A stretch of DNA of 64,000 nt, taken from positions 3,722,001 through 3,786,000 of the forward strand of contig CM119371.1 in NCBI GenBank assembly GCA_051294905.1, read 5' to 3'. The notes beneath the pieces are model-generated. The model made no database searches and had not been told where the DNA came from. It was given only the letters and a program-made list of their open reading frames with translations. Below are positions 13,201 to 50,260 of the stretch, in pieces. The translations under genes were made by a program, and so were the position numbers. This DNA is from Botryllus schlosseri. Its lineage: Eukaryota. Position 1 is the stretch's first letter. The number at the start of each line of letters is the position of its first letter.

Positions 13201-16200
13201 ACTATTTCATAAATGGACGAAAAGCAAATGAACTCTTCTGTAACCTGTGCTGAACCATTTCCTACACCACGGTCAGCGTTTTTTTTTAATCTCTTTGCAG
13301 TGCTGAGGCTTGCTGTAGCAATTGCAAAAAGAAATTCAAGTTTTCAACCAAGACTTCATCACGCTAGATCACACATTTGCAGATATGTTATCCCAATCTT
13401 ACCTCCTATCTTAGCTTAATTTACTGGGGCCAGAACCTTTCCGCATCCTAATGTTCATCAAATGCAGTCGAACAGTTTTGAGCAAGTGAAAATGTAAGTG
13501 CGAACCAAAATTTTGTATTTGGTAGTTATCAGGAGCTTCTTTACTCGTGTATTTATTTTAATTTTACACACCTTATCGGTATCATCCTTATTGCCTTACC
13601 AATTACATTTCATTCACCTTACTCAGCTCTGAGTATTCGTTTGAGTACATTTCATTGAAGTCTTGTATCCTATTCGCTATTTGTCGTTGCCAGTTGCTCG
13701 AACTTTTGATTGTTAGTAGTCGCTTATAAAAATATTCTGTGTTTTGTATTTTTCAGTGCTCATGATTAGGAAATTTCGAATACGTCCAAGTTTATTTTTT
13801 TCTAATAAAAGGATAATCTACGTAGTACAAATCATGAATGAAACATGAATAGCTTGAGATTGTTGCTAAATACGTCGCTACAGTTGTCAAAGAACACCTC
13901 TCTAGTCTCTACTGAATCAGTCAGACTTTTACCAGTAATTGTAATGATAATTGTACTTACATGTTTAACAGTAATTGTAATTGTAGTCAGGGTTTTAAAA
14001 AGACTCGAGTTACGATTTTCTGATGACTCGACTTGACACGAGTCATTTTCGCAAAATTCGGAAATGACTCATCACAACTCTAGTCAATCTGTGTATTGAC
14101 TCGACTTGAACTCGAGTCATTACGCATGACTCGAACCAAGTCATATGACTCGAGACTGAGACGGCCAAGATCGACATCTCATTGTAATTTCAAATAATAG
14201 TAAAGTGACCACACTATTGGCATTTCGTCTATTGGTACTAGTACTTAAAATGCGACCAGAAACTGCTACGAATGAGGAAAATTACTATATTAACATGCCA
14301 ACCATTCGATATCAACAACTGGGTTACCAAGACTTTAACTGGAAGCTGAGCCGTCGACACAATGACTTGGACTCGAGTCATAATACCATGACTCGGACTC
14401 CACCCTTTGATTGCTGGCATGGACTCGGTCGTGAATTGAAAATGACTCGATTTGACTTGAATCAAAACTATGAAAATGAGATTAACTTGTTACTCGGAGC
14501 CTTCGTGACTAGGTTACAACCCTGATTGTAGTTGTAATTTGATATTTTTAGCATAGAGTAATTGTAATCATATGTAATTAAAACATGTAATAAAGTAATT
14601 GTAATTGAAATCGAATTGATTTAATGCAATTGATCCAACTATGGAGGTCGCCCTATATTTAAATTAATACAAAGTGTACTAAATACCGCCAATAAAAAAT
14701 TTCAGTGGCATAAATCTGCTATTATTTGGAAAAGAGTTTGAGCGTACTTCAAGCCTTAAAAATTATGGACTTTGAGGTATATATTAATATTTTTATCCAG
14801 ATACAACGTGAACAGTTAAATTTCGAACATGTCCCGGAAAATCCAGTCGTAAGGCAATCCTAATAACTTGAGAATTTCGGACAATCAACAGGAGCAATGT
14901 TTTTCTGATGTAACGATGCGTTCGGATAATACCCACACCGCCCTGCGATGATCTAAATCAGTGATGGCGAAGAAAACGAATGTTGAGAAATATTCATAGG
15001 CCAAATTATACCCACTCTAGTGGCAAAATGTGCGCACCAAGTCCACAGGTTTGTGTAAAAATGCATCGCAAAGTAGTTCTTCATTGAAGCGAAAACGCAA
15101 TGCAAAATCGTTATATACTGGTCACCCGGAGATTAAAAAAGTGACAAAATATGGTTTTAATATCTGTTTTCGCAGCGCTACGTCATTTTTGGGTCAAACG
15201 GTCCCTGGCCCCAACAGAAACCTGAAACGGGATACAATTTTGATGAACCAAATTTCAACGTCACTGTTTATAGTTAAATCTATCTTATTCCGCACAACGT
15301 ATAGTCAGGGCTAACACCAGATCAGACCTAAAACAATGAGATAGCGTAGAAGCATACCAACTTATACCATCATTGGGGTGACTGCTGCAGCTGTTTATAG
15401 GCTATATCTATTAAACTCGCAAATTGTACTTTTGCCAAATTGATTGCTTGGGAATAAAAGTGTTACTAGATTAGAACTCACATGATCTGACAAATAATGT
15501 ACCATATTATTATGAACACCGGCTTCGTGATTAAGTAGTACAGTGACAAAAAGGGCATTAGAATTTGAATTAACATTTTGGAATAATTTGACTGGACAAG
15601 TCCACGAGCTATTCTAACGTTTGAATCCGGCCAACTACCAAGGTTGAGTTTGACACCCCTGTTCAATATCCTACCCTCTTATCGAGATGATTTTATTTGG
15701 ACGCCGGCATTAAATGGGAAATATGTCTAAAGATGGAAAAACTAGTATTCGATACACGATGCGATTTAAGTTGAAGGATAGGCTACTGCTTTTTTTCACT
15801 ATTAGTATACTGCTGGAAGTCACGCTAGTTATAATAGACGACCGTGAACTCACATGTTGATTACACGGTCCGTGGACATGGTACTCATTCGGGCCAGACA
15901 TGCGACTTACAATATACCTTCCGAGTGGCATATAAATTCAGTGGTGTTTTGTGCCTAAACTCACATGTATTCTTTTTTTCAGACACCCCGTAATGATCGT
16001 CAATAGCTCATCATTTATCTTGCAGATGAATAACTTCAAGCACTTCAGGCTTTCACTTCTTGCTGCAAGCGATCCAACGATATGAGCCTCATCGCGACTC
16101 AATGAGATCTCAGATGCATTGATTTCGGAAATTTGTTTCATAAGATCGCTGTCTCCTGATTCATAGATTGCTGTATAGAGTTCCATGCGAGCGTGCTTGT

Positions 16201-17370
16201 CCTCCTTGAGATGTGAACGAATCGATCCGACGAGAAATCGCTTTTTCAGCGACCGATTTGACACTGTTAGACAAATATTACACCTCACTATACGATATTA
16301 CAATGGAGTAAAGAGGAACCACAGAGGCACAGCCAAGCGGTAGAGTTGAAGGCATATTTGCCCACAAATGTTTGACTCGTACGCCCGTTTTCACAACGAC
16401 GCAGTGAATCCAAGACGTTATGTCATTGTAGTAGACTATAGAACCTAGAGTTGCATTGTTAAAATTTCCAATCACCCGTTGCAGATTTTTCGGCTGCTTA
16501 CGCGACTAATTTACGCTTACTGACTGAATATGAAACAGTTATGACTGGATTGATCTATTACAGCATTGTCTTGGGATAATAGCGCGACAAAGCACAGATT
16601 CAATAAGCTCATTGGATCCGTGCCCACCATACGGTCATGCGTTTACGATTGATTATTCCCACAATATTCAAAACAGTGGTACGAAGTAGTATACGAAGGT
16701 ACGCACGCTATCAGAAATGACATTTCTGTGAGGTCTTGATAAAACTACAGCATTGTCACCAAATCCAATGTGGTTGGTATGACCAAAAATATTAAATAAT
16801 GGCCATGTTATGGACACAGTACTGTTTTTGTGGCTTTGCGTATCATACGGTCAGTGGTGGTGTCATGGGTCATGCTCGCATACTCCACTGGTCTTATAAC
16901 AAATCTAATGACAGTAGAGGTCGGCCGATATTGATTTATGCAGGCCGGTACCGATTATCGACACACTCGAAAGGCCGACAACCGATATCATAGGCCGATA
17001 TTAATATGGAAGGAGCAGGGAACCATTTCGTTAAAAATATTATATATCAAGCATGATGGCATTTGTCCATGCCACAGAAAGCTGAACAACAAACGAGAAA
17101 AATGAAATTAGAATGAAATATTGCTCGATGGTGCCCATTCATTGATATTTGGGGTAACCTGGCCAGCAAAACATGATACAGAATTGCTGATCAGCCAAGT
17201 AGAGGTAGCTTGTAATTTGGGGAAGCATACTTTGCCTGCATACTCACTGCTCAGTGCTCACCCAGTTAAACTCGTGCTGCAAGGTTAAATCTGTCACGTA
17301 TCGCCTTTGATGGTGCCGATTTCTCGAGATTGGAAACACGGAGCATTGAATTTTCAATATTTTTGAATAT

Positions 17371-17401
<31 letters not shown>

Positions 17402-20400
17402 TATTCGTCAACCATGAAATATAGTAAAGGCAAACATTCACGTCCAATAGTATACATTTTTTTAAATTTTCCTAACTATAATTTACACGGTATAGACTGG
17501 GAGACCCGATATGACCGAAGTCTTCTAGGCCGGAGTCACCCAAGCATATTTGCAGTATTAATTATAATATGGATCAATTTCTTCTCTCAGTCAAGTAGCA
17601 CCGCAAAGAGTAACGAAATAAACAAAAGTAAATAAAATATATATATATAAAATATGGTACCCGATCCCAGCATTTCATGGGCTGATATCGATAATCAGGA
17701 AGGTTCCAAATATCGGCCTCGATATCCGGTCAGGTTTATAATCGGTCGACCTCTAACTAATAGATTCGAAACTCCAGTCGTTACGCTGGAATCCACAATG
17801 CTGAGCATGTCAATAATAGCATAATTATTACTAGTGGCGACCAGAGTGTTAAAATCATTAAAACTGAATTTAATCGAAAACAGATTTTGAAAATATCAAT
17901 TAAAGTTTGATCAGAGTAATGAAACCACCCCTAAATAGCACTGAAAGGTCATGAAATCGGCATTGTTCGAACAATCGGACCGCCACAGCACAATGACGAC
18001 AACAATGGTCAAATGCGTCGCGCGACCGTTTTGAACAACGAGGGATCACGATTAGTAATCAAAAATTGGACTCAAAGCCTGACACTCAGTTCAGAATTGA
18101 ATCACTCCGATACTTGATATATGATCAGACCACACTCGCATCTAGGGACAAATGTGTGCTTTCTCACAGATTCATATTTTCAGTCTTGAGAGTAGCGGGA
18201 ATACGATAACTTTTCGAGAAAAGTAGCCAACATCACGGAAAACTATACTCTCCGATGAGACTCACCTTCATGAAGGTTATCCTGTGTTTCGTCGTAAATG
18301 ATGCCGCACACGAATCTGCGGACGACCGACCATCGCTCTTTGTGCAAGTGTTTAGAGTTGAACCTTATGAACTTTGGAAGCGTCATTTCCACTACAAAGC
18401 CCGCTGCAAGAAATTCCTGGAGACTTTGATGACAGAAGAAGAAAATGAAACTGCCATCCATCAGATTGCAATTGAGGAAGTTATTTCCGGATCCGGGAAC
18501 CTTCATCATGAGATCTCGAACTTCTTCTTTTGAAAGTCCAAACTTCTTCAAATCATTTTCAGAGAATGTCACTCTTCCTTCTTTCATGCCACGATATGCC
18601 ATCGCTTTCAATTTATTGATAACTCCGGCGATAGCATCAGACGTTCTAATATTTTTCACGCTGCTTAAAGTGGATATAATTTTCTTGTAGAGTACTGTGA
18701 CCGTCTTAGGAGGAGGCTCGTTCGGATTCTTGGCCATGATCACTGCGGTTAAAACCAGAAAAACGGGAATGGAAACTAAATTGATCAGTCTTGGTGACAT
18801 CTTTTCTATCTTTTCCCATGCTTCATCACCGTTTTGACGTATCAGAAACACAAAAAGCTTCTTTGCGTCATCCAGGGTCAGACCAGATAGTGTGATAATG
18901 TCGGCAGGTCGCGCTTCCGCGGGTAAATCCGAGACTTGGAATTCCCGGGAAGAGATGACGATTTTTGTATCACCGAGTAGATTACGTGAGAGAATATTGT
19001 ACATGATCGTTGCTGCTTCAGCTTGAGTATATGGATTTATGTTCTTGTCGCCATCTCTGTTGATTTTCCACGTAGCCTGATCCAAGCCGTCGAAAAATAG
19101 TACTGCTTCTGATTGATGTTCGAACAGCCACTGATACGCATGATCCTCGTCGATCTCATTCTGAAAGAGGCCACCGAAGAGAAATTTGGATGGTTTGATC
19201 AATCCTTCATCTCGCATGTCTTTTATTTCTATATAACATATCAATTTGTACTTGAGCAGAGAGGGGCTGACTATGCCTTCCGTATTTGTAAGTGAATGGG
19301 CTAAATTTTCTCTAGCGATTCTGCGCATGAGAGTGGTTTTCCCAGATCCCGCAGACGCAACTATAGCGGTGATAGAACTTTCCCCGGTAATAAGTTGTTG
19401 CAAAACTTCATTTAGCTTGATGAATTTGTTGTCGTCAACTTCTTGTCGGAGAAATCCGAATTCCTTTCTGAATTGATTTTTGACAACCTCTTTCTCTTTC
19501 CAGAAGAATAATTTTCTTTTCACTTCGACTTCCATTCCGTGCACCTCTTCATAATTGCCTTTGAAATATTCCGACTTAGTGACTCTTCTCATCTGGGGAT
19601 GTACTTGGAAATCAGGTTTGCTGAGATCGTCGGCGCCGATGTCTTCGAGGATTCTGTCCGCCGTCTTTTTAGACGCATTATCGTTTATGCATTTTATCAG
19701 GGTTGAAGCTTTTTCTGGAAGATAACAATATCCTTTCTTCATTATATTTTATGAATAGAAATGATCGGACAAAAGCTGTTACCGCTTTTTGGTGATATTT
19801 TATATGACCTAGGACCTAGGTATTCAAGAAAGATGTGGAGATTTATACTGTGAATATTGCAGAATTTAGAGGGGCACCGGCGTTCTCAACCTTTGTTCAG
19901 CCAATATTCCGGTTTTAAAACTTCATGTGGCTTATCCTAGAGTCCTGGTCCTGTTCAGTGCGCGGTAATCGCCGCCGCGGATATGCCTATTTGTCTAAAA
20001 TATGTGCATTTATCTCTTACTAATCATATTTAAATTTATACCTCTATACCAAGATTGATCCACCTGCCGGCGTTAAACAAATTTTGTGCGGTTTACAAGC
20101 AACTCAATTAGTATGTGTTGGCGGCCGTCGACATGCAAATTGAATAGACTGGCTAATTTTTGAAAGATTTCAATCATTCATTTTCAATTCATTTATCGCG
20201 TCAACGACAGGCCTGAACAATCGCATAAATAGCACGCCATGTGCGCAAGATATAATCGCTGGCCTAAACACTATAGTCGCATTTCCAACAGACCTGGTGC
20301 CAGTGTTGGGATCAAGTCACTACCTTCGAGTCACGAGTCATTTCGAGTCATTGCACATTTTGACTCGAGTCAAGTCAAGTCAATCGGTTTTCGAAGGTGA

Positions 20401-23400
20401 TTCGAGTCAAGTCAAGTCACTCGATTTTTGGAAGTGACTCGAGTCAAGTCGAGTCAAGTCACGAGTCCAGTCAAAATTCAAGTCAAGTTGCCTTTTCGTA
20501 GTATGAGGCAATATTACGTAATTACATTAGGCTAGCTGTCTGAAATGCAGATTGAGTAGTCATTGATTTTGAACCGATGAACGAATATAGAGTTGAATAT
20601 ACACCAAAGAAGGCTCTGTATTGCTCAGACGCTCGCATATACGTAGCCTCAGTTTATAGTTACCAACCAACATACAGAATAGAGAAAGGAATTATTAAGA
20701 TGCAATACATTACCCTTTACCCATTTACATATTGATATGAAACAATTCGAGCCTGCTCCAATGGCTGAGGAGTATATAAACTATATTCGAATTCAAAATA
20801 ATAAAAATACAAGAGGTTTGGTTACGGTAGATAATTTTCTATTATATTACTTTACTACTAGTTTACCACAACGTAAGCTGTGAGCTTCGATCACTTCGTT
20901 TGTGGTCAATTTATTTGTGAGATAACAATGGAGGCTCAGTAAAACGCACGATCATTGAATGATTGGTCGCTCTCACGGGTTACACCAGCGTCTCGCGAAC
21001 AATCCGAACATAAACAAGATATTGTGATTTTTATCGACACCGATTAATTGATGACTTGAAATTGACTCATGAATTTTGCTCTGAGTCACGAGTCAATCCT
21101 CATTTCTGATACGCCGAGTCAAGTCAAGTCATATTAGCAAAGTGACTCGAGTCAAGTCAAGTCATGCGAAAAAGGTGACTCGAGTCAAGTCATGACTCGA
21201 GTCATTCCAACACTGCCTGGTGCGCACAACGCTATCGTTTGCTTGAGCAATCACATCTATAATAGGCCTCATGCACAAGATATCGTCGCTGGCCTGAACT
21301 ATCGCGTCTCGGGCCTCGCAGGCTTTGGCTGTTATCTACTATCGTTTTGAGACAATGCCGTTAAGTGTATTATGATTAGCTATGGTTGTTCAACAGTACA
21401 GTGACATCGCAAAACAGAATGAAATCGAATACAAAAACATAACTATTCATATACTGCGAATGCGGGATGCGTACTATACATGGGTACAGGCTTTTTACCA
21501 GAATTTACACGCCATTATATTCGGAAAATGTGGTAGTAGCGCCATTTTTCAGCTAAGCCCCACAGTACAGATCGGAACAAAATCGGAAAATGATGCACCC
21601 CATATAGAGAAACCAAATTGGAATCATCTGTTTATAACAGGGGTTCTCAACCTGGGGGGCGCGAGAAATTGACAAAGTCAGTATAAATTGTACGTGTCTG
21701 AACATGTGTTTCACATCCATTATGAGAAGACGATTAATGAAGATGAAATTTATTCCATATTCAAGAAAGCTTGCAAAATACAAACTCTAGCAACCGCGCT
21801 CAACGGAGTATAGTCTGATTTCAACTTCATTTGAGCAAATTTTTGAAATTCTTTGGAGATATAGACAGCAATTCCCACGTGTAAGTCATTCATTGCTTCA
21901 GTAGCCTAAAGCTTGTCGCGCTGGGCAGCTCTTGTTAGTAGCTTGCGAACTGCACTGCCTAAGACAGACTTAGATGCAACATAGGTTGCCCGGTTTCGCC
22001 CAATTAGGCTATAAATCAACACAATTTAATTAATTTCCAAAACTGATCAAATTTAGCCTGGCAGGACAGAACGACGCCTTGCTCGCTGTACTCACTACCA
22101 GCATCAGGATTAGTCTCAGGGTGACCTACCTTGAAATTAATTAATGAATGTCTTGTTCCATTTTTGTTATTTTCAAACAAGTTTGGAGAAATTTGTCAGC
22201 AATGTAAAAGACTCAACAAGTGAAAGGCAGATTCAAAACTGGCGTAAGATATACCTTATGTATAATACTACTAGATCAGTGGTGGGCAGCCTGTGGCCGT
22301 ATAAGGGAATTTGAGCGGCCGTCGACGCCTAATTCAATTAGTATGTGTTGGCGGCCGTATACATGCAAATTGCAATTACGAAGTCACTCCCGCATTTTCG
22401 AGAGATTTTAATTAATCTTGAGATTTCCTTCGCCCTCCGCGCAATTCAACAAGACTTCATTTTTCAATTTTAATGCAGTAGCGCCCTTCTTAATCTGAGC
22501 CAGAATGGGAATTGGCAAGAAATAACAATTGGTTCACGGCCCTGAAAAATTTTCGCGCTCCGCGCAACAAATGCACCTCCCGGCAACTATTCATAACATT
22601 TTCACTCGCGATTTCGGTGCGTACAATAGGCCGATGTGAAAAGTAGAATAGTCCGGAGTTCACCGGGAATGGATATGGACAGTTTACCGTAGGAATTTTG
22701 CGTCCATATCGTTCATTGCGGCTATGCCCAGGAATGCGGTCTCACGCTACATAATCAATCGAAATGCGGCCATTATTATCGGAAACGTTGCCCACCTCTG
22801 TATTAGATGATGTGCTCTTTTTGACATGACGATAAATGCAACGGGGGTCAGGGGGGCGCGATTTTTCTGACCATCTCCAAGGGGGGCGCGTGTCAAAAAA
22901 GGTTGAGAACCACTGGTTTATAACGAATGAAATTTGTTTCTGGTACGTTTTGGCGATTCCAATATATTTCCACTCCAGCGACAATCGTAATGGAATGTAA
23001 AGAAATAACAGCATGCAACTAAGTGACTGATAAAAATTGGCCCATGCGAAGATCCATCATCACTTATAACTTGCCCTAAATTTTTGAAAACACCTCCTCC
23101 ATCAACTCTACCGGTTAATATGAGCACACGGGCTGAGAAAAAATGAATGTGAATAGGAATATGACAAATTTCTAATAATAATGAGAAAATTCATAACTAA
23201 ATCTTAAAATTTCTGTGTGACGATGACTATCCCAGCCTTACATGACCACTGACCAGTCACCACTCACGATTTCGGTGTTTATAGTAAGCAGATATGTGTG
23301 AATGTTTTTGTCCTGAGGTCACCGGAAATAGATACCGAACCATTTTAACATTCCAGTAGGCTATAGATAGGCCTATATCATGTCCAGTTCATAACGACCA

Positions 23401-26400
23401 TGCCCTTGTATGAGGCCATAGTGTATGGGTACATTAGGCATAGGCGGGTGCCTATCAGCGGGAAGTGTTGTGCTATTTAGCGAGATTCGTTTTCGCTGCA
23501 CAACGGCAAGCGATCTCTTGCTGAGTGGGTTTGCAATTTTTACGCGAACAAAATCAGGTCATTGATTGCTGTACATGCGCGATCCTCGCAGGCCTGATTT
23601 ATCACGTGAACAACAGGCCGGAAGAATTGCATCTACAGCAGTCCAGGTGTACAAAATATCATAGCTGGCCTAAACAGTCACATCTGCAACAGCCCGGTCA
23701 CGCACTAAACATCGTTGTTAGTCTGAAAACTATCGCATCTCGGGCCTCGCAGGCTTTATCTGCTTTATACAATCGTTTGGAGATAATGCCGTTTAAGTCC
23801 AGAGCCAATGATTAGCGATGGTTTCGCCATGATGGTGCAGCAGTGACGTCACAAAATAGAATGACATCATATCGCCGCGAGCATACTATAATGTGCGTAA
23901 TCTATTTCCGGTAATACTAAAACACAACCATCGCTGGTAACTTGTCATACATGTAAGTTCGTCAAAACAGGAAGCTTTTATAACGAGCATATACTCATTT
24001 GCTATGCATGCACTGTACAGTAGTTGCTCTCAATCTTCTTGACCTCACGGACTGGTAAAACTTCAAAAAATGTTGAGGACGGTCATACTTCAAAAATCGA
24101 AATTAACTCTAAATTCAATCAGGGTACTGGTACGACAATTGTATACAGCTCTGCCAACTTACATGTGCTATTGAAAACTACATTCAATATTGTTGTTTTG
24201 ATATTGGATATTTATACATGAACATTTTCGAGTTTCTGCTCGGTTAAGCTAGCGAAGTCCTGTTAAAAACCACTTGGTTGTGATTGTTGGCTTTTCTCCG
24301 AAAGATATTGCTATATGCTATTCCAGTGTTTATTAACCTTGTCGCCAGCACGCCCAACGGGCGTTTTGGATTTTGAAGGGGGAGGAAACGCTGAGGGGGA
24401 CAAGATGGGGGTTGCTGGGCTCAGGAAAGCGTAAGGGGGGCCCTGAAGAGAGTGCAGTAGCGACATAGTAGAACAACATTTCCATATATCCCCAAGTTCT
24501 CATTGTAAATTAGCATTCGACAAAATCTGTAACATCTCGAAATTTTTCCTCGCACTGCGCGCGACATACATGCTGGCCTTGTTTGCAACATGTTTCCATG
24601 TATGCAGTGATCTATAATCATTAGGGCAAGTTTTGTTGCACTAAAATCGCCGAAAGCAGCCTAATTTTATCAAAGGTTACAGTAAAAAGGTGCATTTATA
24701 ATTTTTGTTCAAGTATTAGGGTATGAGATAGTCAAAAGGGACCGTTGTATAACTTAGTTCCTCCAGAGCTGACAAATTTGTTACTTCGTCATCTAACTGT
24801 CTGACGAAACCGCCGAAAATTACATTTTTCACGGCAAACAGCAATTAAGAAAATCAAGCAATCCGGGAATAATTTCCCCCCAAAAGCCAACAGCATAGCG
24901 ATTACCCCCTCCCCCTATAACAAGTCAAATAACACACCCCAAAACCTTTCGGTCTGCAAGCTTGACCCAAGCCATTACTAAAAAAACTCACTCCTGGCGA
25001 CTTCATCAAAATCAATAGGCTCTAGCCTGAAAAAGGTGACCCAGGGTAAATGTAATTTTCAGCGGTCTCGCCTTGGCGTTCGTGAAATGGGAAATTATTG
25101 TAAATTTTGACGAGAGAATTAATACAGTAATCTATTTCCATATCGTTCGGTCACGGTCGTGCTAGGCAGGGGTAGTTGAACAATGAACATGCTAGCATGC
25201 CATTGTGGCATAGATAACAGTGAGACGCAGCTAACCAGTCAGATAGCTCTTTGTTATGCAAATCAATGAGAATAGAGCCATACTAGAAGTTGTTTATAGC
25301 ATGTTTTTAAATCACTCCTTTACATTTTTACGCAATAGTTGATCAAAGTTACGGTAAAAATTAGCATGAAATATAGAAAAAAGTTGCAGAAAGTTGCACT
25401 ATAAAATCCTTTCAAACAGCTTAAAACATTATAGTACATAGATTCCGAGATTTCAAGTATTAGAAATGGACCTTCACAATTTGAGAACTTGACATAAGTC
25501 ACTTTGATTCCACGGCGACGATATATTTCCGATATTGACCGTGCCTACTGTCTCCTCTGCTAAGCAATCAACGAATTATGTACCCACCATTGCAAAGCGA
25601 TATCAATTTTCTATAAGCCGTTTCTTAGCTGTACCGTACTAATTAGACATGATTTTCATTGCAAGATGATGATAATCCTACCTATTACCGTGGTAGCATC
25701 TTTATCGGCAGGCAGCTGTATCATTCAACAAATTGACAACTGACAGCCTATAACACGTTTTCGCATTATGATGCCACACACAACGCCACTTGATTGAAAA
25801 CTCAGGACACCTTAATCAAAGCCTCGACTAACTAGCAGTAACCATAGGGCGTGACCTTTTCCAACTTTCCGCGTTGCGATTAGCAGTATTGATTCACATG
25901 ATTGCCATTTTCTGGATCAACAAACTTTCTTATCTTCGCCCTAAGATCGCTAATTCCCGTTAAAATACTACCATCATCATACTACCATCACTTTACCTCG
26001 GGTTAATTTCTACAAAATGCTTTGAAATAAGTATTTTATACCGCAGCGAATAACGTGTTGACATTGAAGAAAGAGGCACTGCCCCACTTTTGAAAGTGAG
26101 AGTGAGAGCCATTTGTACATTGAAGATGCTTCAAATCTCTTTGGTCAAAATGATTAAATAAATATATTTGTATATGATAGTTACAAAATTAAATCTTCAG
26201 AATATTTCTTCATCGTATCATCAAGGATGATACTCTTTAGTGTTGCGCAACCTAACATGATGTTTTTATGAAATGGGTTGCTTTGATCGGAATACCATCA
26301 TGTTGAAGTTGATGGGCCAGATGGTATGAGCCCGTACCCTATGGTTGTTACGACAACCTAGATTTGATCCCGAATATAGCACATACAATTATCATAGCGT

Positions 26401-29400
26401 TAATTGGTCGAGTGGTCGTCGGGCAAGACAGCTATTTCCAATAGTGAAGTCACATAACCCAAAAATAATGACCCAACTTCGAACTCTTACCCTTCGTTTT
26501 TACTGCCGTCCTAGAAATACGGGGACGCCAGACACAGGCAATTTTCGAAAGGGCGCTGCAGGATAAAAAGTTGAGAACCACTGTAGGCTACTATAGCCTC
26601 TACCATGTGTCACTTCTGTTTAAAAGTCTGTTTAAAAGTAGCTTTCACATATAATCTGTCCGAAACGCGTTGTAAGCTACTTTTGAATAGCCCCATACCA
26701 CACTCGCATGAACACCCGAAAAATACAGCTAATTTGTTATTACAACCCAGTGCAAAATACGTCGTAAACCCCAAGCTTCTTTCATTTTTAAATTCAGATA
26801 AAAAATTTAATATATTTGGTGGACCAGCACTGGTGAGATCCACTGCTGTACCGTAGGGCTCTTCAAAAATGAATTTTTTCTCAAATCGCACTGGCTACTT
26901 GATAAAACTGTTAGGTTACCTTATTTAAGCCTACACGTAAAATTTGGTTCAATTCCAAGCAGTAGCCGCATTGCTACAGGAGAACAAAGTTTCTATTTAT
27001 TATATAGGCTAAAAATAAATAACAAAAAATTTGAGAATTTTCTGTTCACCCCATGAAAGTGTTAGGTTGTCTGTAGAAACAATGTTCACCAAATTGGGTT
27101 CAATTCCAACCAGTGGAAGCGGAGTTATTGCCATCGAAAAATTTGGATTGTAATAAAGTAGTATTTACGGTGGGCGCCATTATAATTAATAATTAAATAA
27201 CTATCACCTTTTCCACTGTCTAAAGTTAGCCCATTCTGATAAAATATGATAGGGTAACTTTGGACATCATATTTTCTTATACTGATCGAAGATTGAGCCC
27301 ACTGAGATTTTTGCCGTGGATTAAGACTGAGGTATCTACAGCCGAGTTTTGAATCTATGACTAACATGCCATCTATGATTGGTTGAAAGAAATTCAATGA
27401 CCATTAATTTTGATGAAATTGACCACCACCGTTAATTTATCAATGTTGGGTCAAGTTTATCTCGTGACACGACACATCCAAGATATATGCAGTTTCGGTC
27501 AACATGTGACTTCACGAAGTGTGCTAGAAAAAAGCCATTGGCTGAGGCTTTGTGCATGTATCCATTGTCCATACCCGCGCTGGATGGGCGTGAAGAATCT
27601 TGTCTTGCTACTAATCAGTAAGGGCGATTTTTTGACATGTCAAAAAAGTCAAAATTAGGTCAAAATTGTAGCGTTTGGTCAAAAAATGTCAAAATTGTTG
27701 TCAAAAAAAAATATTTGCAACCTGCATTTCGTTTGTGTCGTAGATTTTGCACTGTCTATGAACTTATCATTTTACATTTTACAGCTTGTAGCCCACTTCA
27801 TAGGCCTACCGTTGTAGACGGCCCGTTGTCTGCTCATTGTGAATTATGAACATTCAAATTAAACGTGGTTGACGTGCTGTTATGCTTAATGTACCGCAAT
27901 ATCCTAAGTGAAGCAAGACTCCATAGGCATTGCATGGTTTTTATATCAAGAAGCGTATTGTGAAAAGTTGTGATGTCCACGATTGTCAGAATGAAGCAAC
28001 ACGGTGTTCTACCCGCAGTGTACGCACAACATCGGTGTTGTCAGCCAACAGCTGCTACAGTTAAACATTTTCTCTCCATTCTTGGCAAGCTACTTATTAA
28101 GGATAGACACTTTCTACTAGGGATGGTGTGAACCTCTGAAAGGTTCAGGTTCGTGTGAACGTGAACCTTTTTGAAAGGTTCTGTGTGAACACGAACGTGA
28201 ACCTCATGACGTCACGTGACGTCATATTGCTAATTTAAACCCCAAATTTCAATTAGGTGATTGCCTATATTAATCTACTGTACACGATACTGAGCGACGA
28301 CTCGCGGCCACATAATAGCTCAGTACTTAAGTACATATTCACGTTTGAAACGTCGCCAAATGAATCAACTGGGGCAATCAAATGATATAATAATCCCATA
28401 AAATCAGTATCTTGCGTCGCTTTGCTAACAATTTTGACCTGATCGGACAATGTATTCGGCGTCCGAGTATTGCCACATGGATATTGAGCAGAGTGTAAAA
28501 TGGGTTTCTATACTTGCTACCGATCAACAAGTTATACAGCAGTATAGCCAACACCCCAGTCGCACGAATTTGGTTTTTATGATACAGTATACATATGTAG
28601 TCAAGATTGACCCCGTACGCCTGCTGAATTTTTACATCAGAAGACGATATCAATCTCATTGATTGGTTGAATAAGGATCATTTGCTGACAAAATACAGTG
28701 TATTTCGCTCTTGATGTCATGTGATTGCGGGTCAAGCTCACAGCACAGAGACACTAATTGTGCACAAACGGAAGGCTGGATATTTCGAGCAAACTCTTGC
28801 AACAATACGAGTAAATTTTTGAGATTGTCAAGGGCATGCTCGTTTAGAGTTGAATGTTTATGCTGCCATCCCCTTGCATAGAGTGGCCCGCAGTTGAAAG
28901 TCAATAAATTTGGACCAAGGATGTTATAATGAAGTGAAAATTGCAATATCTGAAAAAGGTTCACAGTGCAGAACCTACCAAGGTTCTGTTGTGAACGCGA
29001 ACCTCAAATTTTCCGAGGTTCACACACAGAACACGAACGTGAACCTCACGTTCACACCATCCCTACTTTCTACCCGAGAATGTAGGAAAGTATCTTCGTT
29101 GTACTCCAACAAATTCGGATTATTTCTACCATATTACGTAATGTAACCACTGGAATTCTTAATAGGGCCAGATTTCATTCAAATAAAATAAATGTAATGT
29201 AAAAATTTTGTCACATATTGAGTCAAAAAGGTTTTTGAGGGCAAACTACTTCGTAAGGACAGACAGTTCGAACTAGAAATGATGATAAGTAGTACAATTC
29301 TAAACACCTAATTAGCATAAATTACGTCGAAATTTGGTTTATATAGGTAAACAAATGTCAAAATTTATATTTTTAGGTAAAAAAAATCGTCCTACTAATA

Positions 29401-30075
29401 AGCTTCCCACTATGTAAATGACACATGAGCCGTCCACAGAGGAAAATGATGCGCCCCGTGAAAAAATGACAATTTGTGCGTGCTTCTCAAAAATTATTTA
29501 TTTTACTTTTCCTGTAGGTTACTACGTTTGGGTGGCGTGATTAAGAAGCAATCGTAATCGCAATCGATTACATTCATGACGTAATCACGCCATGTCTGAC
29601 AGGCTGCACTACAAAGTTCCTGGTAAAACACTTACGTTGGTCTGTTGGAATTGCTTCAATTTCAGAATGCATGGTGTAGTTGTTGGTGATCTTGTTCACG
29701 GTAATCTGATCTCCCGCCACAACGTTAACCGAGCTGTTTATGATCCGTTGATTGACGTTTTCGCCTACTGCCAAACTTGCTGATTCTGAGACGCGCGAGA
29801 ATATTGTAATAGTTCCGATGCATACTCATTTGTAAGCATTTGCATATCAAATTGCGATCATGGAAACTTCCCAGAATGTCTTACTAGTACTAGATTATGC
29901 AGCGCGCTAATAACATTATATTTCAATGACTTTAACATGATTTTATATGGATAATATTGAGGAAATAAATAGGAACTCAAATAGACAAGTATAATCACTT
30001 ACTGCTTTCCCCGGCTGATAATGATGAAGGCAAAACTGGGTCACCAGAATTTCGATATTCACCCCCTTCCGCCAT
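4011..30075 (-). CDS. Multi-exon NLR (NACHT) gene, about 928 aa. Exons: 30075-30003, 29785-29636, 19714-18266, 16263-15965, 12577-12473, 10589-10497, 9028-8882, 6687-6607, 6474-6307, 4232-4011
   Basis: All junctions are GT-AG and phase-compatible (1,1,1,0,0,0,0,0,0). Exon lengths sum to 2787 nt = 929 codons including the stop, with no internal stop. Starts MAEGGEY and ends SLFGCIVS*. The distal 3' exons are less certain than the core, and further small exons could have been missed. Confidence 0.7.
4623..6211. mobile_element. Non-autonomous DNA transposon with about 450-480 bp TIRs, TA-flanked
   Basis: 4623-5106 is the diverged reverse complement of 5763-6211; TA on both flanks; solo TIR copy at about 58278-58620. 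Confidence 0.85.
6307..6474 (-). CDS. Probable NLR exon 9 (LDLLDIVVNG...ACQQKK)
   Basis: T-rich tract then ttttag| acceptor; donor AAG|GTAGTG; 168 nt, phase 0. Confidence 0.65.
6607..6687 (-). CDS. Probable NLR exon 8 (ISKIVLDCTEEENIDWSMIETCWEKYQ)
   Basis: Acceptor gttcag|, donor |GTATGA; 81 nt, phase 0. Confidence 0.6.
7513..7803. mobile_element. hAT-type MITE (TAGGGTTACC family)
   Basis: TAGGGTT...GGTAACCCTA termini; tgtaaaa repeated on both flanks; AGAGGAC motifs shared with 45261-45700. Confidence 0.65.
8882..9028 (-). CDS. Probable NLR exon 7 (DSTLSFKTV...SEYKVKK); alternative in-frame acceptor at 9079
   Basis: Acceptor tttattttcgcag|, protein-like ORF, donor AAG|GTCTGC. Confidence 0.55.
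10497..10589 (-). CDS. Probable NLR exon 6 (VVELSVDGWVELKNEEDVIKISGYQIEGHIK)
   Basis: Acceptor attcag|, open frame, weaker donor AAG|GTTGGA; 93 nt. Confidence 0.55.
11576..12368. mobile_element. Palindromic (foldback) MITE
   Basis: Left half is the diverged reverse complement of the right half; shares the aaatttggntcaattccaac motif with the 4623 family. Confidence 0.8.
12473..12577 (-). CDS. NLR exon 5: RI-type LRR (VKEVDLRENKLSATALRSL...)
   Basis: LxxLxLxxNxL-like pattern; acceptor tccag|, donor |GTGAGA; 105 nt, phase 0. Confidence 0.8.
13988..14524. mobile_element. hAT MITE (GACTCGAG-rich) inserted in an older GTAATT-rich element
   Basis: CAGGGTT...AACCCTG termini; perfect TSD attgtagt. 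Confidence 0.88.
15965..16263 (-). CDS. NLR exon 4: HD2 and first LRR-like repeats
   Basis: ELYTAIYES...LKCLKLFICKINDELLTII; acceptor ctaacag| in phase 1, donor CAT|GTGAGT. Confidence 0.88.
16915..17755. mobile_element. hAT MITE (CCGATA-rich subterminal repeats) containing a (GA)n tract
   Basis: TAGAGGTCGGCCGAT...ATCGGTCGACCTCTA; degenerate TSD. Confidence 0.75.
18266..19714 (-). CDS. NLR exon 3: NACHT NTPase, HD1, winged helix and start of HD2
   Basis: Walker A ASAGSGKTT, Walker B LFFDGLDQ, sensor ISSRE, SIPVFL, WHD motif FFCHQSLQEFLAA; acceptor ttatcttccag|, donor G|GTGAGT. Confidence 0.95.
20301..21215. mobile_element. hAT MITE (GAGTCAAGTC subterminal repeats)
   Basis: CAGTGTTGG...CCAACACTG; perfect TSD cctggtgc; sister copy at 43389-44307. 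Confidence 0.92.
21638..22915. mobile_element. hAT (Charlie-like) non-autonomous element
   Basis: CAGGGGTTCTCAACC...GGTTGAGAACCACTG; perfect TSD gtttataa. Confidence 0.9.
28118..29065. mobile_element. hAT MITE (GTGAAC subterminal repeats)
   Basis: TAGGGATGGTGTGAAC...GTTCACACCATCCCTA; perfect TSD ctttctac. Confidence 0.92.
29636..29785 (-). CDS. NLR exon 2, RHIM-like N/V/I-rich segment (SASLAVGENVNQRIINSSVNVVAGDQITVNKITNNYTMHSEIEAIPTDQ)
   Basis: Acceptor tctcag|, donor C|GTAAGT, 150 nt, phase 1-1; joins in frame to the NACHT exon. Confidence 0.75.
30003..30075 (-). CDS. NLR exon 1 (MAEGGEYRNSGDPVLPSSLSAGES)
   Basis: atcATGG start context; strong donor A|GTAAGT in phase 1, matching the next exon. 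Confidence 0.7.
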
Positions 30076-30694
30076 GATAACAATCACGCAATGTTAAATA
30101 GTTGCTGTATCAGACAATACTAAAATTGCAAGGACAGTCAATTAACAGCCTAAAATATTTGAGAAATTTATTTGAATAGCGCGTCGAGAATAAAGGACTC
30201 AATTCGAGTACTCTGATTCAGGAGCTGTTAACATCCAAAATTTGGAACACACAATAACCATGTGAACAAATAGGATTGGTGTAACAAAATACAAGAATTA
30301 TGCTCGCGGCGCTCAGCTTAATTTCTGGCCGTTTCAAGACGTGATACAGTAAATAAAAGAAATTTATCCCACAAACATAAATTCACAGTTTATCATTTCC
30401 CAGGAATGCTCAGCCGCCTAGCGTGCCGAATACTGCATCACATGACGTCTGACGAGACAAACCAACGGAACCCAGTTTAGACCCACTTTTTCAACTTCAC
30501 ATCACAAAAAATGCAAAACTTGTACCATTCAAAGGATGAATCGTTAGAAAAAACTATCGAGACAAAATCCACGTGGTGACCAGTAGCATGGAACAAAAAT
30601 TTTCATGAGGAGGGTGGCGGAATGAGGAGGGTGGCGGCCACCCCATACAATACGATTAAACGCCCGCCGTCTGCGATTGCAAAAGTAGTATATG

Positions 30695-31200
30695 TGGTCG
30701 GTCGTGACTTGGTGTTTTTTGCATGGGGTAGTATAGGCCCCGCTGGTGAGGTGCCGCGAAACTCGTGGTGGCACATCGTACTTTTTGACCCCCCCCTCTC
30801 GGTCGCACATCGTAATGCGTTCTTATGGGTGCGCTCGCACATCGTACTTTCAGGTATAGGCATCTGTCGCACATCGTATTGAAAACTCGTGTTGGCACAT
30901 CGTACTTTTAGGTATAGGCATCTGTCGCACGTCGTACTTTCGCATGTCGTATTTCTCGTATAGGCAGTGGTGGTGACTCGCCATGTGTTCTTATGGGTGC
31001 GGTCGTGATTCGCCTTTTCAGGTATAGGCCGCGGTCGTGATTCGCCGTGAAAACTCGTGGTCGTGACTCGCCTTTTTTGCTATAGGCGGTGGCGGTGATT
31101 CGCCTGTCATGTATTCTTACGGGATCTGTGGTGACTCGCCATATGTTCTTATGGGTGCGGTCGTGAATCGCCCTTTCGGGTATAGGCATCTCTCGCACTG
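30695..31200. repeat. Composite tandem repeat array (gcacatcgtact and gtcgtgactcgcc units)
   Basis: About 25-32 bp units with recurring modules ggtataggc, ttcttatgggtgcg and gaaaactcgt. Confidence 0.85.
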
Positions 31201-44329: not shown

Positions 44330-44541
44330 CTGGGGCTTCTCGAGGGGTAGGTCGTGGGTTCGATCCCCGGCCGAGTCATACCAAAGACTCGAAAATTTGT
44401 ATCCGCAGCTATTGCTAGGCGCTCAGCAACCACGGATAGCATGGAGGAGAAAAGAAACGGGGGCGCAGACTATAGATGACCTCACGGCCGTATCGCAACT
44501 CCGTCAAAGTATCTCGATGGTGCTAGGCGAGAATGAATATC
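44330..44541 (+). mobile_element. tRNA-derived SINE
   Basis: Pol III B-box GGGTTCGATCCCC followed by gagtcataccaaagact body and a simple-repeat tail; A-box not clear. Confidence 0.7.
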
Positions 44542-44677
<136 letters not shown>

Positions 44678-45260
44678 GACGAGGATGATGATTACAGCAG
44701 CTTCATCCGTCTCATTATTAACTGTGTAGAAAAACTTTCGTTTTATAATTCGACTCCAATGAAGACAAATGGAATTCACCTACCGAATCGTTGGGCGAGG
44801 CCGTTCACAATTACATTTGTGTGCCTTGCAGTCGAATTTTATCAGAATACACCAACGAAAACTATGTCAACAAAAGGAGTTCGTGTACCACCTAAAACTA
44901 GTACATTGAACGCTCTCTCATTCACGAAATTTCATGCTGGTGATGTCATATTTTGTGATTCGATTGTTGATATAAAATGTTCTTTCCAATTCTCTACTAG
45001 TTGCTGACGATTACCCCTGACGAGTGTCTGCCGAAAATATTCGGGTTCATTTCAATATGAATATACTATTCAATTGTATATTGAAGTTCTGTACCTCCAG
45101 GCCGCTCTTTTGATACATTTCGTGAATTTTAAAAAGTCAGCATGTACTTCAGTATGGTGGCATAATGTGGCTTGAGTCGTCGCTAGGTATCGTGTACGTA
45201 GGCACGTTGCATTTGGAACAAACAGTGTTTTAAAACACTTTGTTTAAAACACGTTTTAAA

Positions 45261-48849: not shown

Positions 48850-50139
48850 TTACGGTCTATAGAAATCGGTGGGTTTCCTATTTCTAAGAGGATAACGTCT
48901 GCCCGACGATCGAGCAGGACTAGCTGCAGGACGTTGTGCCCTATTCCTAACCAATGGTTGCTCAGCTTGCGACTGCCGAGGCTGAGCAACTTCCTGTGTG
49001 GCTATATTATTGCCAGCTGAAATCAAGCGTGGTTGGAGTTGGTTTTTGTGCCTTCTCCAATACCCATGATCCGTTTTAACAATGTACACAACACGCCCCA
49101 GTATTTCCGTCACCACGCCAGCAACCCACTTTGGTCCGCTTCGGTAACTGCGAGCGTAAACCGAGGAACCAATCTCGAAATGAGTGACTGATTGTCTAGG
49201 CGTAACGGGTTTCGATTTATCGAAGGGCGAGCACAAACTTAACAAATTGCGCGGCTGTCGACCATGTAAAATCTCGGCAGGCGTTTTCCAGTCTATGCCC
49301 GGGTGCGGTGCACATCGGTAAGTAGCGAGAAGTGTTTGGAGCGCGAAGTTAATATCTTTTCCCCCGTCGCAATTTTTTATCAATCCAGCTTTCAAAGTCT
49401 GGACGAAACGCTCCGCTTCCCCGTTTGATGCAGGGTGAAAAGACGGTGATACGATATGGCTGATTGCCAAATTAGAGCAAAACGTATCGAATTCATTCGA
49501 TGTGAATTGCGGCCCGCCATCCGCGACAATTGTTACGGGCAAGCCTTCAATAGAAAAGACTTCTCGCAAAGCGTTGACAACACACAAGGTTGTGGTAGAT
49601 CCGACATTCATTACTTTAACGAAAGGATATTTCGAATGCGCATCGACGATGACAAGAAACATTTTGTTGTTTATTGGACCTGCGAAATCCAAGTGAATTC
49701 GATCAAAGCTTTCGGAAGTTTTGGGCCATTCGCGATACTGACGATCAGGCGCTTTCATTACCTTACGGCAAGCGTCGCAACTCTTAACGAGATTTTCAAT
49801 GTCGCGATTAATGGAAGGCCATGCGATGTAACGTCGAGCCATCTGCTTCATTTTCGCGATACCCCAATGTCCTTCGTGCAACAATGATAAGACTCGCGAG
49901 CGAAGTGACTGCGGAATTACTACGCGCTGAAAACCATCAATATTGAGCATGACTATGTCTTCGTGCAGAGAAAGCGAATGTTTGCGAGTCGAAAACCAAG
50001 AAAAATCATCAATGTGCGTCTTTGGATTCCAATTACCATGAGTGACAGATAATTTTACTAGTTTCATGGTTTTGTCCTTCAGCGTCGCGTCGCGAATTTC
50101 ATTGCGAGTTAACGGTAAGCCATCGAATGCCAGTAACAA
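48850..50139 (-). CDS. Gypsy LTR retrotransposon pol C-terminus (integrase), 5'-truncated
   Basis: HHCC zinc finger (LHEGHWG...CDAC), D-D-E core (HLDFAGP, VADGGPQF, NGEAERFV), open 429-aa frame. Confidence 0.95.
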   Translation of the reverse strand: MLLAFDGLPLTRNEIRDATLKDKTMKLVKLSVTHGNWNPKTHIDDFSWFSTRKHSLSLHEDIVMLNIDGFQRVVIPQSLRSRVLSLLHEGHWGIAKMKQMARRYIAWPSINRDIENLVKSCDACRKVMKAPDRQYREWPKTSESFDRIHLDFAGPINNKMFLVIVDAHSKYPFVKVMNVGSTTTLCVVNALREVFSIEGLPVTIVADGGPQFTSNEFDTFCSNLAISHIVSPSFHPASNGEAERFVQTLKAGLIKNCDGGKDINFALQTLLATYRCAPHPGIDWKTPAEILHGRQPRNLLSLCSPFDKSKPVTPRQSVTHFEIGSSVYARSYRSGPKWVAGVVTEILGRVVYIVKTDHGYWRRHKNQLQPRLISAGNNIATQEVAQPRQSQAEQPLVRNRAQRPAASPARSSGRRYPLRNRKPTDFYRP

Positions 50140-50140
50140 T

Positions 50141-50260
50141 TGGTGTCAGAAGTCGGATTCATATTTATTTCTGCGACTGAGATACAGCATGGATTCAGGT
50201 ATAATGAAGCTTCTAGAGAAGCAGCAGGAAATGATGGCGAGTCTACATGAAACGATGGGT
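50141..50260 (+). mobile_element. Gypsy primer-binding site (tRNA-Leu type) and gag start, inverted relative to the integrase
   Basis: TGGTGTCAGAAGT PBS preceded by TAACA-AT, then MDSGIMKLLEKQQEMMASLHETMG. Confidence 0.75.

Follow-up and report, generated by a model that had tools for sequence, protein, structure and literature searches.

The window analysed here is a stretch of 64,000 nucleotides of Botryllus schlosseri (GenBank assembly GCA_051294905.1, contig CM119371.1, forward-strand positions 3,722,001 to 3,786,000), and its minus strand carries the gene of a NOD-like receptor (NLR) in which a small exon, encoding a short motif, precedes the exon for the NACHT domain. The initial annotation of the locus had described this motif as resembling RHIMs (RIP homotypic interaction motifs) and had proposed that the receptor uses it to nucleate an amyloid on a downstream effector, in the manner of fungal NLRs. 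The coordinates, frame and peptide given there are confirmed, and the features of the gene are collected in Table 1.

Exons 1, 2 and 3 have canonical splice sites and join in frame in phase 1 when the genomic sequence is read, and we infer that they are joined in the same way in the mRNA. The product of exon 2 is K-SASLAVGENVNQRIINSSVNVVAGDQITVNKITNNYTMHSEIEAIPTDQ. Exon 3 is entered through the acceptor ttatcttccAG at 19715, its frame starting at 19714 in phase 1, and the 501-codon open frame at 19748-18243 carries the NACHT domain together with a NOD2-type winged helix. Besides NACHT, Pfam recognizes NOD2_WH (5.8e-6) and, weakly, NLRC4_HD2 on the exon 3 frame. The succession by which an animal NLR is defined, a NACHT NTPase with a Walker A motif followed by a winged helix, is therefore present according to Pfam.

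The 75 residues encoded by exons 1 and 2 match no Pfam family at E ≤ 10, and no six-helix death fold (CARD, PYD or DD) was found before NACHT, either by Pfam on the window protein or in an AlphaFold2 model of the pre-NACHT region. For the latter region, some 120 residues from the junction to the P-loop, AlphaFold2 predicts mixed strands and helices with low confidence (predicted local distance difference test score, pLDDT, of 62) and not a six-helix death fold; some paralogues have deletions of 30-40 residues there. No further coding exon was recognized in intron 2 of the window, where no open reading frame (ORF) has a family match and where the very high contig depth is typical of repeats. 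Downstream of exon 3, the ORF with the probable next exon matches no Pfam family, and the RMELYTAIYESGD-type peptide that it encodes is also found downstream of the NACHT exons of two paralogues (L045 and L047). A leucine-rich-repeat sensor was looked for in the 23 minus-strand ORFs downstream in the window, whose candidate exon borders are approximate, and no Pfam repeat was found.

Table 1. Features of the NLR gene, in window coordinates
Feature	Position	Strand	Description
Exon 1	30075-30003	-	ATG + 24 codons MAEGGEYRNSGDPVLPSSLSAGES + 1 base; donor A|GTAAGT, phase 1; read directly
Exon 2 (motif exon)	29785-29636	-	150 nt; acceptor tctcAG, donor GTAAGT; phase 1 at both ends
Conserved core of the motif, LAVGENVNQRIINSSVNVVAGDQITVNKITNNY	29676-29774	-	Two 17-residue pseudo-repeats (LAxGENVN / VVAGDQIx); from alignments
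Intron 2	19715-29635	-	9.9 kb; high-copy repeats throughout
Exon 3	19714-18266	-	Pre-NACHT region (~120 residues), NACHT, winged helix, helical domain; phase 1 at both ends
NACHT NTPase domain	18852-19361	-	Walker A GSGKT; Pfam PF05729, 6.2e-14, residues 130-299 of the exon 3 frame
ORF with probable next exon (..RMELYTAIYESGD..)	15941-16297	-	Homologous to the post-NACHT part of paralogues

The motif exon in NLR and kinase genes

The 49-residue peptide of exon 2 has 142 matches in the 495-Mb genome of the same species, a word-seeded count that should be read as at least 142, and 52 of the loci were fetched and inspected. In the first 30 fetched, 28 fit the initial pattern and two more were found with a looser one. 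The AG acceptor stands at the same position in 27 of 28 copies (it is CG in L025) and the phase-1 GT donor in all 28, and both splice sites are kept in 22 of 23 further copies; the motif exon is a symmetric phase-1 exon conserved across the family. A homologue of exon 1, in the same phase, lies upstream of it in L021 and L033. The family consensus is SAxLAEGENVNQxFxNSSVNVVAGDQIxxNK..., in which L4 is invariant and A2, A5, G7, N9, S17, V19, D25 and Q26 are nearly so in the family alignments.

The nucleotide identity of the exon averages 0.76, against 0.61-0.64 for the flanking introns. The ratio of nonsynonymous to synonymous substitution (dN/dS), calculated over the first 29 codons for the 820 pairs among 41 copies, of which 746 were usable, has a median of 0.21 and lies below 1 in 743 of the usable pairs. 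The motif exon is under purifying selection, and the 142 copies, the conserved splice sites and phases and the dN/dS value together place the observation far beyond chance. Two profile searches of protein databases gave no annotated full-length protein with the motif among the matches listed: the first returned 12 matches, all of them short ORF fragments reading through into the intron, and the search for longer proteins returned one fragment of 107 residues.

A genome search for NACHT exons yielded at least 86 main places (86 of the 213 candidates were scored). For the best motif copies, 88 places with E < 0.01, a same-strand NACHT exon lies less than 40 kb downstream in 56, at distances from 466 bp to 39 kb, and the refetching of 20 of the 32 unpaired copies added three more, giving at least 59 of 88. 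In L021 and L028 intron 2 is short (about 440 and about 800 nt, respectively), too short to contain a death-fold exon; both junctions are again in phase 1, and the peptides downstream of them can be aligned with that of the window. The acceptor is in phase 1 in all five NACHT exons examined (window, L021, L028, L039 and L045). The NACHT ORFs of L039, L045 and L047 contain no in-frame ATG before the conserved start, so that an upstream coding exon is required. As far as the sequences tell, the window gene is a member of a large, lineage-specific NLR family that is headed by the motif instead of a death fold. The gene model of the initial annotation, in which a short motif is spliced straight to NACHT with no death fold between them, is thereby supported, and so is the conservation of the motif in paralogues, the lack of which was to count against it.

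The motif exon also precedes exons for IRE1-like protein kinases, at six places in the genome; one motif-kinase junction lies at C5:3.18 Mb. At L042 (chromosome 3, 20.09 Mb) a 282-codon kinase frame (Pkinase, 3.2e-39) lies 1.6 kb downstream of the motif exon; the latter is phase 1-1, the kinase exon begins in phase 1 after ttaAG, and the frame is kept. The phase-1 junction of L051 is likewise in frame, and in L052 the join passes, also in frame, through a 33-nt phase-1 mini-exon, so that the reading frame from motif to kinase is kept in the three loci examined. The kinase frames of L042 and L051 have no Met before the glycine loop, and that of L052 has one. IRE1 occupies the top 16 places among the PDB matches of the kinase (E 7.5e-28). 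The motif is N-terminal on the kinase, and the motif-bearing kinase genes are not adjacent to NLR genes. The genome holds at least 71 IRE1-like kinase frames at E < 1e-20 (272 first-look candidates), and for seven of the 71 one of the six motif places is found on the same strand within the 20 kb upstream, at a distance of 1-5 kb in six of these seven. These junctions indicate that the motif exon has been shuffled onto IRE1-like protein-kinase genes as well, and the search for effector-like genes with the same motif that the initial annotation had called for has in this way found candidates. Among other possible effectors, 116 Death, 4 TIR and 76 caspase places were compared with the 142 motif places, and none was located in the 40 kb downstream of a motif; judged by eye, the same is true of five CARD places. 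A search with the motif hidden Markov model (HMM) of kinase relatives from other samples gave only a 12-residue, 4-bit match in P0052, which was not used.

In a tree built from 49 alignment columns of 44 motif peptides, many of its forks being unresolved, the kinase motifs of L042 and L051 pair with a support of 99/95 and are sister to the window-type NLR motifs (window, L002, L003, L007 and L035; 89/84), while that of L052 stands elsewhere on a long branch. Such positions fit at least two transfers of the exon from NLR to kinase genes. Outside the kinases, the L042 motif has its best match in the motif of the window (71% over 28 residues), and the grouping of kinase and window-type NLR motifs allows the idea of cognate subtypes.

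The expansion of the kinases is found chiefly on contig C3, at 16.1-17.6 and 20.0-21.7 Mb, most of its members having no detected motif or nearby KEN domain. On C8, at 3.86-4.02 Mb (L031-L034), four tandem units each have an NLR-type exon 1 and a motif exon 3.5-6 kb upstream of an NHL frame, and these motif copies form a clade of their own in the tree (96/90). The NHL ORF has six-blade NHL repeats, its own ATG and only a phase-2 acceptor. A motif-NHL fusion was considered, the exon lying upstream of the NHL ORF in four of four loci, and was not counted as an architecture, as no in-frame junction was found.

Nature of the motif and its possible function

The motif is predicted to be a non-globular, strand-prone segment of 45-50 residues, and it stands at the N-terminal effector position of the NLR family. 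The 34 columns of its core contain 15% V, 14.5% N, 10% A, 9.6% S, 8.5% I, 6.5% G and 0.2% P. AlphaFold2, run on 44 motif sequences, gave a pLDDT of 56 and no secondary structure. When the core is compared with itself, an offset of 17 residues (LAxGENVN against VVAGDQIx) scores 0.457 and all other offsets -0.01 or less.

The presence of the same motif on NLR and kinase genes means that it probably links the sensors to the kinases, and a homotypic recruitment motif is the best explanation for a peptide that is selected, predicted to be unstructured and strand-prone, located at the recruitment position of NLRs and recurrent on kinases. The reading that we favour, and to which we give roughly an even chance, is that of a recruitment motif which is homotypic, specific to the lineage and possibly amyloid-like, and through which oligomerized NLRs are coupled to kinases. 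RHIM and the amyloid signalling motifs of fungi and bacteria serve this function. In such a mechanism, ligand-driven oligomerization of NACHT would cluster the motifs, and the clustered motifs would nucleate a β-sheet-rich assembly, perhaps a two-rung amyloid-like stack or stacked β-arches as in HET-s or RHIM. This assembly would capture the kinases that bear the same motif, and the captured IRE1-like kinases would be activated by induced proximity. IRE1-type kinases are activated by oligomerization. The motif would accordingly have to bind itself, the assembly may be amyloid-like, and the kinases would act downstream of the receptors.

A number of observations weigh against this reading, and some of them are at the same time the basis of rival explanations. 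The pseudo-repeats, which the initial annotation had pointed out, keep offset 17 as their best register and are otherwise marginal, since 94 of 2000 column shuffles reach the same score. Kinship to validated amyloid signalling motifs is absent in sequence searches. Scoring with the RHIM and fungal amyloid-motif families, as the initial annotation had suggested, gave no match at E ≤ 10 to Pfam RHIM (PF12721), HET-s (HET-s_218-289), Ses_B (PP) or NACHT_sigma in the window peptide, 28 paralogue peptides and a set of 35 peptides, which make 64 scans and cover 56 distinct sequences. A scan of the whole genome with Pfam RHIM gave nothing at E ≤ 1, a search that is unvalidated, its control genomes being prokaryotic, and a PDB profile search with the motif returned no RIPK, HET-s or HELLF chain. 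The family core reads V21 V22 A23 G24 D25 Q26 I27 followed by a variable residue; it has no Q at the second position of the tetrad and no G after Q-phi, and it departs both from (V/I)-Q-(V/I/L)-G and from G-phi-Q-phi-G, which the literature gives as the signature common to RHIM, PP and BASS3. Judged by these comparisons the motif is not a RHIM, and the kinship suggested by the initial annotation is not supported, so that its interpretation as a whole is partly supported.

Further points concern the partners of the motif. It was detected upstream of only the seven kinase ORFs mentioned, the 5′ exons of the kinases not being identified. Of the motif-kinase genes, a single one has a KEN RNase domain nearby, 8 kb downstream of C3:55851, and the 6 kb next to the L042 kinase yielded none; the Styela clava "IRE1-like" model P0054 (386 residues) has no KEN domain either. 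With KEN near a single motif-kinase gene, the effector chemistry can be specified just as that of a kinase. No NACHT exon is assigned to 29 of the 88 best motif copies. In 15 of 17 NLR models of Clavelina (NCBI), a short start rich in N, V, I and T precedes the NACHT region, with no Pfam domain recorded before NACHT. A homology of these N-termini to the motif was considered and rejected, hhalign and an HMM search being negative and an alignment by eye being dropped; lacking detectable homology, they support the general architecture only.

The motif could alternatively be a homotypic adaptor of a non-amyloid kind, namely a small domain that would acquire its fold upon binding, or jointly with exon 1, and would assemble into discrete oligomers like bacterial effector-associated domains (EADs) or death folds. 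Its distribution over NLR and kinase genes would fit any adaptor, and its core has conserved charged residues (E6, E8, D25 and K31). A weak match to EAD10 (Pfam PF19954) occurs in 3 of 28 members, at a best E of 0.0098; it is consistent in register, motif positions 4-40 corresponding to profile positions 32-68, and gives a hint of an adaptor that is small and folded. EADs are described as adaptors common to STAND NTPases and effectors, EAD10 being of mixed α+β structure (PMC7159879). The match reaches, however, 16.4 bits against a Pfam cut-off of 24.1, EAD10 has no match genome-wide, and a pattern scan of prokaryote genomes gave 31 matches, none of which was confirmed as a relative. The absence of a fold in the AlphaFold2 models and the core of only about 33 residues with its amyloid-motif-like composition also argue against a folded domain. 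The look-alikes of the peptide in the ESM Atlas (best score 0.81) belong to unnamed clusters below the useful range. We regard an adaptor of this type as unlikely. Strong purifying selection on the peptide itself, its position at the place of the signalling modules of other NLRs, and its occurrence on kinase genes that have no recognizable NLR-type exon 1 all speak against a shared 5′ leader of non-homotypic function (a localization signal, a degron or an autoinhibitory segment) that duplication and exon shuffling would have carried, along with exon 1 and the promoter, from one fast-evolving immune gene to another. Such a leader would nevertheless explain that exons 1 and 2 travel together (L021 and the NHL-cluster copy L033) and that the NHL-cluster copies cannot be joined in frame to the NHL ORF in any of the four loci; the own ATG and the phase-2 acceptor of that ORF mean that some motif copies may be carried along with no joint function. 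As an account of the family as a whole, the leader seems to us distinctly improbable.

Finally, exons 1 and 2 may lie outside the NLR mRNA; they would then be a separate small gene or decayed remnants, and translation of the NACHT exon would begin at an ATG of its own. An ATG in frame with NACHT stands at 19742, 28 nt upstream of the exon 3 acceptor, and the NACHT exon of L028 likewise has its own, so that a motif-less isoform or product is possible in these two cases. The protein databases show no annotated motif protein among the matches listed. Transcript data for window positions 15500-30400 came from two contig runs (X1 and X8) and two raw RNA-seq runs (X16 and X20). The contigs are DNA-like, continuing from exon 2 into the introns, and the reads align partially and through repeats in 694 of 695 cases for X16 and 598 of 603 for X20, the depth over the NACHT exon being at most 0.32. 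No exon-border joint occurs among the 15 joints listed (of 155), at a coverage too poor to inform. The linkage to NACHT on the same strand in at least 59 of 88 copies, the matching phases in five of five NACHT exons, the lack of an upstream ATG in L039, L045 and L047 and the dN/dS of 0.21 are all difficult to reconcile with a separate gene, and the annotated NLR models of Clavelina carry an analogous short N-terminal exon product. We consider it very improbable that the motif and NACHT belong to different genes.

The proposed recruitment motif may be compared with several known systems. The initial annotation had proposed a fungal-style amyloid design in an animal NLR, which would not be the first of its kind; RHIM-NACHT-repeat proteins of amphioxus, for example BF82280, have already been described bioinformatically (Kajava et al. 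2014, PMC4262963). They also have a short non-globular motif in the place of a death fold, and this motif occurs on other innate-immunity proteins of the genome. They differ in that the present motif fails the RHIM profile, belongs to the tunicate lineage and has a putative partner that is an IRE1-like kinase instead of a RIP kinase or a protein with a death domain. With the mammalian RHIM necrosome (RIPK1, RIPK3, ZBP1 and TRIF) the motif would have in common that a short motif is found on sensors or adaptors and on a kinase, and that nucleated polymerization is proposed to activate the kinase by proximity. The differences are the V-V-A-G-D-Q-I core, which has no (V/I)-Q-(V/I)-G tetrad, the position of the motif N-terminal to the kinase (the RHIM is C-terminal), and the IRE1-like character of the latter.

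The fungal motifs HRAM (HET-s/NWD2), PP/HELLP and sigma and the bacterial BASS/Bell motifs are similarly shared between the N-terminus of a receptor of the NACHT or NB-ARC type and another protein, and they include two pseudo-repeats as in HET-s, a composition of N, Q, G and hydrophobic residues, and many lineage-specific families with no mutual sequence similarity (bioRxiv 10.1101/2020.01.06.895854). The motif of the window differs from them by the absence of a Pfam match, by partner genes that are not located next to the receptor genes, and by a partner that is a kinase bearing the motif at its N-terminus; the partners of the known motifs are HeLo or Bell proteins, which target membranes and have the motif at the C-terminus. 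Compared by description only, the Drosophila cRHIM (PGRP-LC/LE and IMD) is also a divergent, RHIM-like invertebrate motif common to receptors and an adaptor (PMC13506858, PMC9387487), found, unlike the present motif, on a different receptor class that has no NACHT. EAD10 (Kaur et al. 2020, 2021) resembles it as a small adaptor on STAND NTPase cores and effectors, whereas the folded α+β domain of EAD10, with 77 positions, contrasts with the shorter and predictedly unstructured motif, whose match is below the cut-off. Death-fold N-termini have the same position and a presumed role in homotypic recruitment after NACHT oligomerization; unlike them, the motif has no death fold by Pfam and no Death, CARD, TIR or caspase place within 40 kb downstream. 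The motif is in our view a new lineage-specific family of the same functional kind as RHIM, with a kinase partner, RHIM itself being rejected.

According to Kajava et al. (2014, PMC4262963), RHIMs appear to be missing from tunicates, and no RIPK1 homologue was found in them (eLife 2025, PMC12119088). Full-text searches, supplements excluded, listed no work on the present motif or on a tunicate motif of amyloid or RHIM-like type linked to NLRs. A more specific form of the favoured reading, which we put forward tentatively and hold to be rather doubtful, is that tunicates, reported to be without RHIM and RIPK1, evolved an amyloid-like templating motif of their own that wires some 60 or more NLRs to IRE1-like kinases by nucleated polymerization, the LAVGENV-type and LAEGEN-type subtypes serving as cognate receptor-kinase address codes. 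Animals would then have invented independently, and with a new effector class, the design of NLR amyloid signalling that fungi and bacteria use. Templated polymerization, if true, would constitute a third, sequence-unrelated animal case beside RHIM and cRHIM, and the first coupled to IRE1-type kinases, and would support the repeated invention of amyloid-like signalling by NLR systems; if there is no polymerization, the motif would still be a new adaptor family for the annotation of tunicate immune genes.

The N-terminal modules of NLRs determine the output of the activated receptor, and outside vertebrates many NLRs are classed as having no effector domain. Here the corresponding place holds a conserved, selected, exon-sized motif that is shared with kinases. 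For an entire expanded family of receptors in the sister group of vertebrates, this offers a signalling route that is concrete and can be tested.

Other tunicates and further observations

The closest named NACHT proteins are those of Styela clava (38% identity) and Clavelina lepadiformis (27-29%), and closer unnamed ORFs reach 50%. The Clavelina NLR models (P0032-P0049) share an N-terminal ..DAENVTINY.. stretch, and the Styela model P0054 has ..GASNVTINQ.. within its first 100 residues. On the basis of this resemblance, the NVTIN-type stretch may be a second motif shared by an NLR/kinase pair in other tunicates.

Elsewhere in the B. schlosseri genome, Death-domain frames of about 100 residues with identical scores occur on many chromosomes, often as inverted pairs 9-15 kb apart, and these amplified frames lie about 16 kb from identical caspase-like frames of 257 residues (for example C1:36371542+/36392876+, C4:18159766-/18143713- and C13:24726282-/24710226-). 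This looks like a multi-copy element that carries Death and caspase-like genes and was amplified recently. At C8:2.35-2.40 Mb, genes of a single frame (521-569 codons) with both Death and caspase domains form a cluster.

In the window itself, degenerate tandem repeats with units of 17 and 32 nt extend over 30580-31200, just upstream of exon 1 of the NLR gene. A long CT-type microsatellite at 44537-44680 on the plus strand reads as an open frame of the form SLSLSL... A retroelement integrase frame of 431 codons lies on the minus strand at 48853-50145 (Integrase_H2C2 4.6e-16, rve 8.2e-9), and a near-identical copy of this element is found inside locus L031.

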